DNA of 64,000 nucleotides from Deinococcus sp. (GCF_025362455.1 NZ_JANYGJ010000095.1:254-64253); one strand, 5' to 3'. Positions 26,036 through 27,244 are shown, counted from the stretch's first letter. The notes: generated by a model from the letters alone, not told the origin. Numbers and translations are program-made.

Positions 26036-26140
26036 GGGCGGCTTGCGGCTGGTGGGAACGACGAAGGGAAGCAGGTGCGAATGAGTTACCTCTGGGGGCT
26101 AGACACTACCTGCATGGCCCTATTTTGTATTCTATGTTTT

Positions 26141-26168
26141 ATGTTCTATAATTTCACTTATGAAACCT
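26141..26168. other. Candidate dif site (11-6-11)
   Basis: ATGTTCTATAA-TTTCAC-TTATGAAACCT: ATAA-N6-TTAT core; 16/22 arm positions match B. subtilis dif as recalled. Overlaps TATAAT at 26147-26152. Confidence 0.7.
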
Positions 26169-26188
26169 AAAAGCCGTTCGAGACCGCT

Positions 26189-27244
26189 ATGACGGGCATT
26201 CAGGGTCAGGCGCTGGTCCTCGCCTCGCGCTGGGCCAACCCGGCCAACCGGCGCCGTGAGGGGCTGCGGGCCGCCCACGCCCAGGACGCGCACAGCCTCA
26301 CCGAGTTGCTGCACACCTACCTGCGGCTGAAATCCAGCAAGGGCGGGCGCATCAGCCCACTCACGCTGGAGCACTATGCCGAGTCGCTGCGCAAGTTCCT
26401 GGCCTTCACCGGCCCACCAGACTCACCCCAGTACGCGCTCAACCAGCTCCAGGCCGAGGTCTTCGAGGTCTGGTTGCTGGTGTTGCAGGCTCAGGGTCTG
26501 TCGGCCTCCAGCGTCAAGCGGCACCTCTACGGCGTGCGCAACCTGATGCGCTCACTGGTCTGGGCGGGGGTGCTGGGCCACGATCCGTCGGTGGGCGTGC
26601 GGCCTCCAGCGGAGGCCCAGGCGGCCCACACCCGCAAGTCGGCCCTGAGCGCGGCGACCCTGACTCGGTTGCTGGCCCTGCCCGACCAGCTTCACCCGGA
26701 CGATCCGGTGCGGGCCAGCCGGGACGCGGCGCTACTGCTGCTGGGCGCTGTGCTGGGCCTGCGGGCGGCGGAACTCGTCGGGCTGGACCTGGCCGATACC
26801 GAACTCACCCAGGGCCAGCTCACCGTGCGCGGCAAGGGGGGCAAAACCCGGCGCCTCCCGCTGACCTGCACCGTCGCGGCGGCGCTGAGGCGCTGGCTTT
26901 CGCTGCGGCCCGCCTCGGTCAGCCCGGCATTGCTGCTCTCGCTCAGCCACCGCAATGTTGCTGGGCGGCTGAGCACCAAGGGGGCGCGTGACATCGCAGG
27001 CCGCTACTACGCCGCGCTGGGGCTGCCGCCGGAGCTGTGGGGCCTGCATACCCTGCGGCGCACGGCGGGCACCCAGCTTTACCGGGCCACCCGCGACCTG
27101 CACGTGGTCGCCGACGTGCTGGGCCACGCCAGCGTGAACACCAGCGCCATCTACGCCAAGATGGATTCCGAGGTCAGGCGCGAGGCGCTGGAGGCAGCGG
27201 AGGCGCTAAGGGGCGGTGATTCGGCCCGCGCCGGTCCAGTCTGA
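26189..27244 (+). CDS. Tyrosine recombinase (Xer/integrase family)
   Basis: SAM-like N-domain; catalytic set GLRAAE (R), GKGGK (K), HTLRR, LGH and IYA (Y). Confidence 0.93.

Follow-up and report, generated by a model that had tools for sequence, protein, structure and literature searches.

The recombinase gene and the 28-mer upstream of it

The analysis concerned a stretch of 64,000 nucleotides from Deinococcus sp. (GCF_025362455.1, NZ_JANYGJ010000095.1:254-64253), referred to here as the window, and within it a short module consisting of a dif-like 28-mer and the gene of a tyrosine recombinase, designated P0001. An initial annotation had read this module as a chromosome dimer resolution system, with the 28-mer as the site and the adjacent protein as its enzyme. 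The features of the module are listed below, with positions counted from the first letter of the window.

26141..26168, no strand assigned: dif-like recombination site of 11-6-11 layout (sequence reading, single copy, conservation)
26141..26151, no strand assigned: left arm ATGTTCTATAA (pairs with the reverse complement of the right arm and co-varies with it)
26152..26157, no strand assigned: asymmetric central hexamer TTTCAC, presumed strand-exchange region (kept where the arms differ)
26158..26168, no strand assigned: right arm TTATGAAACCT (7/11 match to the XerD arm of E. coli dif)
26125..26130, plus strand: TTGTAT, with a weak resemblance to a -35 hexamer, separated from the -10 by 16 nt (sequence reading)
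26147..26152, plus strand: TATAAT -10 hexamer that runs from the left arm into the centre and likely drives the recombinase gene (YATAAT is kept in clade A sites)
26189..27244, plus strand: gene of P0001, a Xer-like tyrosine recombinase of 351 residues (PF00589 and PF02899)
26189..26338, plus strand: family-specific N-terminal extension of about 50 residues, three helices, before the core-binding domain (model alignment, family alignment, AlphaFold)
26762..27154, plus strand: span of the catalytic-residue codons (invariant in the family alignment)
Catalytic codons: R192 26762-26764, K219 26843-26845, H287 27047-27049, R290 27056-27058, H313 27125-27127, Y322 27152-27154

Reading of the window sequence confirmed the 28-mer ATGTTCTATAA-TTTCAC-TTATGAAACCT at its annotated position, with the 11-6-11 layout and the core ATAA-N6-TTAT. 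Eight of the 11 left-arm positions are identical to the reverse complement of the right arm, with a symmetric inner ATAA/TTAT, and the G+C content of the 28-mer is 25% against 67% in the window. The sequence is single in the window at up to 3 mismatches, with 0 matches in 100 shuffles, and single at up to 7 mismatches in the whole genome, a 3.7-Mb draft of 272 contigs that is 91% complete. It lies within the 153-nt non-coding gap between yegS and the recombinase gene and ends 20 nt before the ATG at 26189, in agreement with the 20-bp distance first proposed. The ATAA-N6-TTAT core occurs at 8 sites in the genome, 3 of which are directly upstream of recombinase paralogues (on contigs C65, which is that of the window, C35 and C56). 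A scan of all the species genomes for the core was discarded, as among the matches listed most were chance occurrences in AT-rich genomes.

Carnoy and Roten (2009) described dif sites as non-coding, near the terminus, palindromic with an 11-6-11 layout, low in G+C and endowed with a conserved XerD arm (PMC2731167). The 28-mer lies in non-coding DNA, is palindromic with the 11-6-11 layout, has a low G+C content and, in relatives, is close to the terminus. Comparison with E. coli dif, as given in PMC2731167, returned 4/11 identical positions in the left arm, 2/6 in the centre and 7/11 in the right arm; this last value is for the XerD arm of E. coli dif. The arms are quite different in other lineages of the family.

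The initial annotation had also placed a TTGTAT-16-TATAAT promoter across the site. Both hexamers are literally present and TATAAT is conserved, but TTGTAT shares 3 of 6 positions with the TTGACA consensus and is not conserved in relatives, and a consensus promoter scan did not call this plus-strand promoter. Autorepression by the recombinase at its TATAAT-containing site is plausible.

The protein belongs to the tyrosine recombinase superfamily, Pfam returning 84.8 bits for PF00589 and 32.6 bits for PF02899. It is catalytically complete, as had been annotated, since R192, K216/K219, H287, R290, H313 and Y322 are invariant in the family alignment. Invariant residues (R22, A28, L37 and L40) also occur in the N-terminal extension. 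The alignment of the XerC model to P0001 starts only at residue 54, and the N-terminal 50 residues or so are covered by no Xer model; in the AlphaFold model (mean predicted local distance difference test, pLDDT, 84.9) they form helices 3-11, 18-31 and 34-48 with pLDDT of 84-96. None of the curated Xer models was passed: P0001 scored 132.3 bits with the XerC model TIGR02224 (cut-off 335.15), 110.9 with the XerD model TIGR02225 (cut-off 329.6), 95.5 with the XerA model NF040815 (cut-off 220) and 77.9 with the XerS model NF003462 (cut-off 267), to which only the C-terminal half aligns. The closest solved relatives in sequence are XerD (E 1.6e-35), XerA and XerH (E 5e-26). The fold search, with XerA as the top structural match, confirmed a two-domain tyrosine recombinase but did not separate Xer from phage integrase or Cre, as XerA, XerD, XerH, lambda Int and Cre were matched about equally.

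The genes on either side of the module are conserved:

25034..26035, plus strand: yegS/DAGK-family lipid kinase gene, conserved left neighbour (Pfam; syntenic in clades A and B)
27174..28814, minus strand: lnt, apolipoprotein N-acyltransferase gene, conserved right neighbour (Pfam, synteny)

The 3' ends of lnt and of the recombinase gene overlap by 71 nt. The module neighbours assigned by Pfam are aspS, hisS, the YegS/DAGK kinase, lnt, a metallophosphoesterase, gap, pgk and tpi, all of them housekeeping genes; no phage or cargo genes are among them, as had been noted. The description of the recombinase as a lone one holds at the locus; it does not hold genome-wide, where 8 tyrosine recombinases were found in the draft.

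Conservation of the site and co-variation of its arms

About one in three of the Deinococcus genomes sampled has an orthologue of P0001 with 58-79% identity, and the 28-mer lies directly upstream of these orthologues. When 11 orthologous loci were anchored on the site, the mean pairwise identity was 0.88 within the site and 0.30-0.33 in the 40-nt flanks; the conservation next to orthologues on which the first interpretation depended is therefore present. Each of five complete relatives carries one copy of the site per genome, and in most loci the site is 2-36 nt upstream of the recombinase gene. A locus search with the single protein gave 3 loci only, and an alignment-based search was used for the family, which is present in 90/90 good Deinococcus genomes and across the sample of the phylum Deinococcota, the exceptions being genus g6 (1/23, genomes of 2.1-2.4 Mb) and g15 (0/1).

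More distant members of the family carry other sites of the same 11-6-11 design, in which both arms change together. At least 6 site types were recognised, among them:

GTTCTATAA / TTATGAAAC: site type of the window
ATCCTATAA / TTATGGGAT: further type
CTCCGGATAA / TTCTGCCGAG: further type
TGCCGCTAA / TTAGCGGCA: further type
TGTTGCTTA / TAAGCAACA: further type
CCGTTGATAA-KGCWTG-TTATCATCGG: clade B type, present in 16/16 loci
TCTTACCTAA-N6-TTAGGTAAGA: third common type, upstream of another family branch, on secondary replicons

Symmetric co-variation of the two arms is what a single enzyme binding both of them predicts. On a maximum-likelihood tree of 96 family members the site type required 7 changes, whereas 500 label shuffles required 35 on average and never fewer than 29, a result to be read as congruence and not as a count of independent events because related genomes share labels. 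The centre TTTCAC is conserved even where the arms differ. Four loci (L008, L009, L010 and L022) have the centre in the opposite orientation (GTGAAA) with respect to arms and gene, and in G048:C1 near 2493700 (L352) clade B arms are combined with the clade A centre TTTCAC. Since the hexamer is inverted or paired with other arms in some species, it seems to be under a constraint of its own.

The literature searched contained no description of this recombinase family, and Deinococcus is not mentioned in the main text of the dif predictions of Kono et al. (2011).

Chromosomal position, polarity and replicons

As the genome of the window is a draft, the position of the module was read in relatives and assigned to the window by synteny. 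The gene is located at 45.4-50% of the circle from dnaA (short arc) in 25/25 Deinococcus chromosomes, namely those with dnaA and a family member on one contig of known length, which places the locus at the replichore junction as the initial annotation had required. In three other genera of the phylum the family member lies at about 0.50-0.52 of the chromosome (single-contig genomes, sizes rounded). The slot itself, hisS-yegS-(site and recombinase)-lnt-phosphoesterase, is common to clades A and B, and its flanking proteins are 45-88% identical between the clades whereas the recombinases are only about 30% identical.

At this slot, G004:C1:1924246-1926477 (L018) and G003:C2 (L005, L233) carry a second module between yegS and the resident orthologue. 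The inserted module has the site ACTCCGCAGAA-TTTCAC-TTCTGCGGAGT and a gene 60-63% identical to P0001; the resident gene has lost its own site and, in G004, is also broken, and a small extra open reading frame (ORF) lies between the two genes. The locus looks like an in-situ replacement of a dif module in progress.

Polar features of the window around the site are the following:

26000..32000, no strand assigned: GC-skew change from negative to positive (skew computed in the window)
12675..12682, plus strand: AGGGGAGA copy pointing toward the site, inside a minus-strand ORF
20555..20562, plus strand: AGGGGAGA copy pointing toward the site, inside a minus-strand ORF
7729..24432, minus strand: three copies of the 11-mer GTATATATTCT left of the site, at 7729, 17864 and 24422
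32877..56618, plus strand: three copies of the 11-mer GTATATATTCT right of the site, at 32877, 43709 and 56608

The same skew flip was found at the module in the six clade A relatives sampled, and of three clade B relatives, G053 showed it clearly, G039 weakly and G021 with noise. Over the G058 genome as a whole the skew is close to zero, and it rises only within about 100 kb of the site (C1 1.48-1.70 Mb), while G004 shows a weak genome-wide skew of conventional sign. Gene orientation was ruled out as the cause of the flip, genes being mostly on the minus strand on both sides. Nor does one word account for the bulk skew, C being in general excess on the strand that is read toward the site.

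An unbiased 8-mer screen of the flanks returned AGGGGAGA, with 43 copies toward the site and 0 away, against this C-rich background. Within 20-40 kb of the site in 8 genomes, plus and minus copies numbered 19:0 left of the site and 0:22 right of it, in surrounding sequences that differ, and clade B genomes outside the discovery set gave 4:1 and 0:11. The polarity of AGGGGAGAG was followed over the whole G058 chromosome, where the arm from dnaA to the site has 41:8 copies and the other arm 9:42 (Fisher p = 3e-11). Between the last plus copy, at 1,587,811, and the first minus copy, at 1,590,594, the strand switches, and as these positions flank the module, the switch brackets it within 3 kb. In G053:C1 the ratio was 40:9 on the listed part of the left arm. 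The word outnumbers its reversed control 3.5- to 6-fold (141 against 40 copies in G058). In the relatives, skewed elements thus switch polarity at the site, as is expected of dif; the evidence from the polar word rests on these genomes because the word is too rare in the window. Ribosome-binding sites were rejected as its origin, as variants containing GGAGG are not polar and the copies in the window lie inside ORFs of the opposite strand. AGGGGAGAG behaves like the FtsK-orienting polar sequences (KOPS) of E. coli and the SpoIIIE recognition sequences (SRS) of B. subtilis and is a candidate FtsK-orienting word of Deinococcus, different from the E. coli KOPS GGGNAGGG, to which purified D. radiodurans FtsK binds (PMC9764985). 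The B. subtilis SRS GAGAAGGG was not polar around the site (17:10).

The 11-mer GTATATATTCT has 9 copies genome-wide, 6 of which flank the site with mirrored polarity. This arrangement recurs only in the two closest relatives, G013 and G004, the flanks in more distant relatives having no copies; a role as promoter of a downstream gene is conceivable for only half of the copies. The 11-mer could be a Ter-like element or a half-site resembling the XerD-binding sites (XDS).

The 8 tyrosine recombinases found in the draft genome were compared with the XerC and XerD models and none passed, the best score being 159 bits with a XerC cut-off of 335. This score belongs to a recombinase of 317 residues at G000:C108:581-1534 (L213), G000 being the genome of the window; no dif-like palindrome was found upstream of it, where a short inverted repeat, CAGATG...CATCTG, occurs instead. 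A paralogous recombinase at G000:C35:12787-13795 (L216:4788-5796) has the site AGTTTGGATAA-GCCGTG-TTATCGTAACC 3 nt before its ATG. Since parB, a RepA-type initiator and an AbiEii toxin gene adjoin this module, it lies on a plasmid-like replicon and probably serves to resolve multimers of a plasmid or megaplasmid. At G000:C56:4874-6019 (L219) the near-perfect palindrome AGGTTTGATAA-GTGTTA-TTATCAAAGGG overlaps the GTG start of a family member of 371 residues; this module stands among chitinase, glycosyltransferase and major facilitator superfamily (MFS) genes, with a tandem GACTGTGTTGCCTG repeat just upstream.

Family members number about one to a replicon in the complete multipartite genomes, with C1-C4 of G013 and C1-C3 of G058 each bearing a single one and G080, G101 and G035 approaching this pattern. 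In G051 exactly one TCTTCCCTAA-N6-TTAGGGAAGA site occurs on each of 5 replicons (C1:1012495, C2:179583, C3:122599, C4:100188 and C5:20274), with 0 hits for the reversed-pattern control, and the single family recombinase gene is at C2:196260. G087 has one such site on each of C1-C4.

From its replicon sizes of 2,648,638, 412,348 and 177,466 bp we take G086 to be D. radiodurans R1. The synteny that the initial annotation gave for this species was borne out, orthologues of yegS and lnt lying at 51-52% of chromosome I. No family member was found on this chromosome, and those of the genome are on chromosome II (156,194) and the megaplasmid (124,503). Adjoining lnt, at 51.2% from dnaA and with no recombinase gene beside it, is the single-copy sequence TTCTTACCTAA-TCCCTC-TTAGGAGTGAA (C1:1358504-1358531; L360:1505-1532), with the core CTAA-N6-TTAG, and the same place holds related sites in three related genomes. 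The GC skew flips at this site, and AGGGGAGAG is found 28:13 on one arm and 6:30 on the other, with the switch between 1,353,068 and 1,401,040 (Fisher p = 8e-6). The site and the word are thus candidates for the dif and the orienting word of D. radiodurans, and the enzyme for the site may come in trans from the recombinase gene on chromosome II (156,194). Six putative tyrosine recombinases of D. radiodurans were reported in 2022 and their roles left to future work (PMC9764985).

The module as a candidate dimer-resolution system and its rivals

The module was compared with known systems of site-specific resolution. E. coli XerC/XerD-dif with FtsK and KOPS shares with it the 28-bp 11-6-11 site, the ATAA-N6-TTAT core, the low GC content, the intergenic position at the replichore junction and a G-rich leading-strand word converging on the site, and XerD is the best solved match. 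It differs in that the Deinococcus module has one enzyme, a gene linked to its site and arms that vary together in a symmetric way; moreover, GGGNAGGG is not polar, the skew flip is opposite in sign and the XerC and XerD cut-offs are failed. The canonical pair of two paralogues with one arm each was not found at the locus, which holds one gene and a site with near-identical, co-varying arms. Cre/loxP of P1 and ResD/rfsF of F are plasmid multimer-resolution modules with the site next to the gene. Like them, the Deinococcus system pairs a tyrosine recombinase with a palindromic site, one module per replicon, and its paralogous C35 module adjoins parB and repA; unlike them, the module of the window is chromosomal, at the terminus and flanked by polar words.

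In its working the Deinococcus system resembles the single-recombinase modules, in which one enzyme has its site beside its gene at the terminus, as is the case here. In XerS/difSL of streptococci and lactococci the site is immediately upstream of the gene of a single recombinase, as one genetic module at the terminus (PMC1914069); the lineage is different, P0001 scoring 77.9 against 267 bits, and the 28-bp near-palindrome is compared with difSL in gene layout. XerH/difH of Helicobacter and Campylobacter (PDB 5jk0, 5jjv), where site and gene also form one module near the terminus (PMC2731167), is alike in its one recombinase of similar fold, its similar inverted arms and its 6-bp centre. Unlike in that system, here the canonical XerCD-type core is retained, the protein has an extra N-terminal three-helix extension and many replicons have their own module; the sequence relation of P0001 to XerH is weaker than that to XerD (E 5e-26 vs 1.6e-35). 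Archaeal XerA/dif (PDB 4a8e, 5hxy), the top structural match, likewise has a single Xer acting on a dif-like site; P0001 scores 95.5 against 220 bits with the XerA model, and the system here is bacterial and includes an FtsK.

From these data we consider, with a probability of roughly 0.8, that the 28-mer is the dif-equivalent of the main chromosome and the adjacent recombinase its dimer-resolution enzyme. The dimer-resolution reading first proposed is thus supported by the conservation of the site, its terminus position, the polarity switches, the co-variation of the arms and the absence, among the proteins found, of one passing the XerC or XerD model. After an odd number of crossovers between sister chromosomes, two site copies would meet at the septum as it closes. 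The adjacent recombinase of 351 residues would bind both near-identical arms as a homodimer, two occupied sites would assemble into a tetramer, and strand exchange across the TTTCAC centre would return monomers. Because the -10 box of the gene lies within the site, occupancy probably also limits synthesis of the enzyme. FtsK, which is encoded with its gamma domain in the genome of the window, would deliver and perhaps activate the sites, steered by the leading-strand word AGGGGAGAG, which on each arm is directed toward the site. What we infer from sequence comparison is that the enzyme binds and cleaves the 28-mer, that FtsK controls the reaction and that the enzyme represses its own gene.

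Several observations weigh against this assignment. The local skew flip has the polarity found at the origin of most bacteria. In the window AGGGGAGA occurs only twice, both times left of the site, and the 7-mer GGGGAGA three times right of the site with the wrong polarity, while the E. coli KOPS GGGNAGGG is not polar around the site (93:76). P0001 is far below the cut-off of every curated Xer model and, with the draft 91% complete, a XerC/XerD pair may have been missed. Finally, related genomes are not independent, so that counts of chromosomes overstate the support.

In B. subtilis, XerD unloads SMC (structural maintenance of chromosomes)/condensin at dif and XDS sites. By analogy the module might organise the terminus, through SMC/condensin unloading, decatenation or terminus anchoring, with recombination rare or absent. 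The terminus position and the polarity switches would fit any terminus landmark, the second polar and terminus-clustered word, the 11-mer GTATATATTCT, surrounds the site, and SMC unloading has been reported to align with dif (PMC13342612). We regard an organiser in place of a resolvase as unlikely. None of the six catalytic residues varies in a family whose members have diverged to about 30% identity, which argues for retained catalysis; the asymmetric central hexamer is conserved; and a single site on each replicon, down to small plasmids, is what multimer resolution would show. Terminus organisation and dimer resolution are compatible.

The palindrome might otherwise be no more than an autoregulatory operator, the real substrate of the recombinase lying elsewhere or in foreign DNA. 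Its overlap with TATAAT, 20 nt from the start codon, and the short distance between site and gene in all linked modules agree with this, but a second similar site was not found in the genome, and a fixed position opposite dnaA with converging polar words would be left without a reason. Moreover, terminal one-per-replicon sites persist without an adjacent recombinase gene in the D. radiodurans group and in G051, which rules out a pure operator role; the operator explanation as a whole is very improbable. We give equally little credit to a relic of an integrative mobile element, that is an integrase with its attachment site, domesticated or decaying. A tyrosine recombinase beside its site recalls attP-int modules, paralogues occur on plasmids, and the module turns over at the slot in G003 and G004. 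Two att copies around cargo and a patchy distribution, as expected of such elements, were not found: an attL/attR pair is ruled out by the single copy of the site, housekeeping genes without cargo make up the flanks, slot and terminus position are conserved across the genus, all 90 of the 90 good Deinococcus genomes carry the family, and its closest solved relatives are Xer proteins.

Dimer resolution by the module may be part of a wider, previously undescribed Xer system of the phylum Deinococcota. In this system each replicon would have its own dif type and often its own recombinase, site and enzyme would be replaced together at a fixed slot, AGGGGAGAG would take the place of KOPS GGGNAGGG, and the D. 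radiodurans chromosome I site (about 1,358,504-1,358,531) would be served in trans, with the chromosome II gene near 156 kb as the candidate. We hold this broader proposal tentatively, at slightly under even odds.

Deinococcus is a model of extreme DNA repair by massive homologous recombination, with a polyploid, multi-replicon genome, so that many chromosome dimers must arise. The present analysis offers a concrete site, an enzyme family and a candidate orienting word for their resolution. A study of 2026 could not identify dif and KOPS of D. radiodurans, and a phylum-wide system, if true, would supply both. The module and its family would also add a fourth lineage to the single-recombinase Xer systems, one whose modules are specific to the replicon, and its at least 6 co-diverged site-enzyme specificities would form a natural series for the evolution of recombinase specificity and possibly a source of orthogonal recombination tools.

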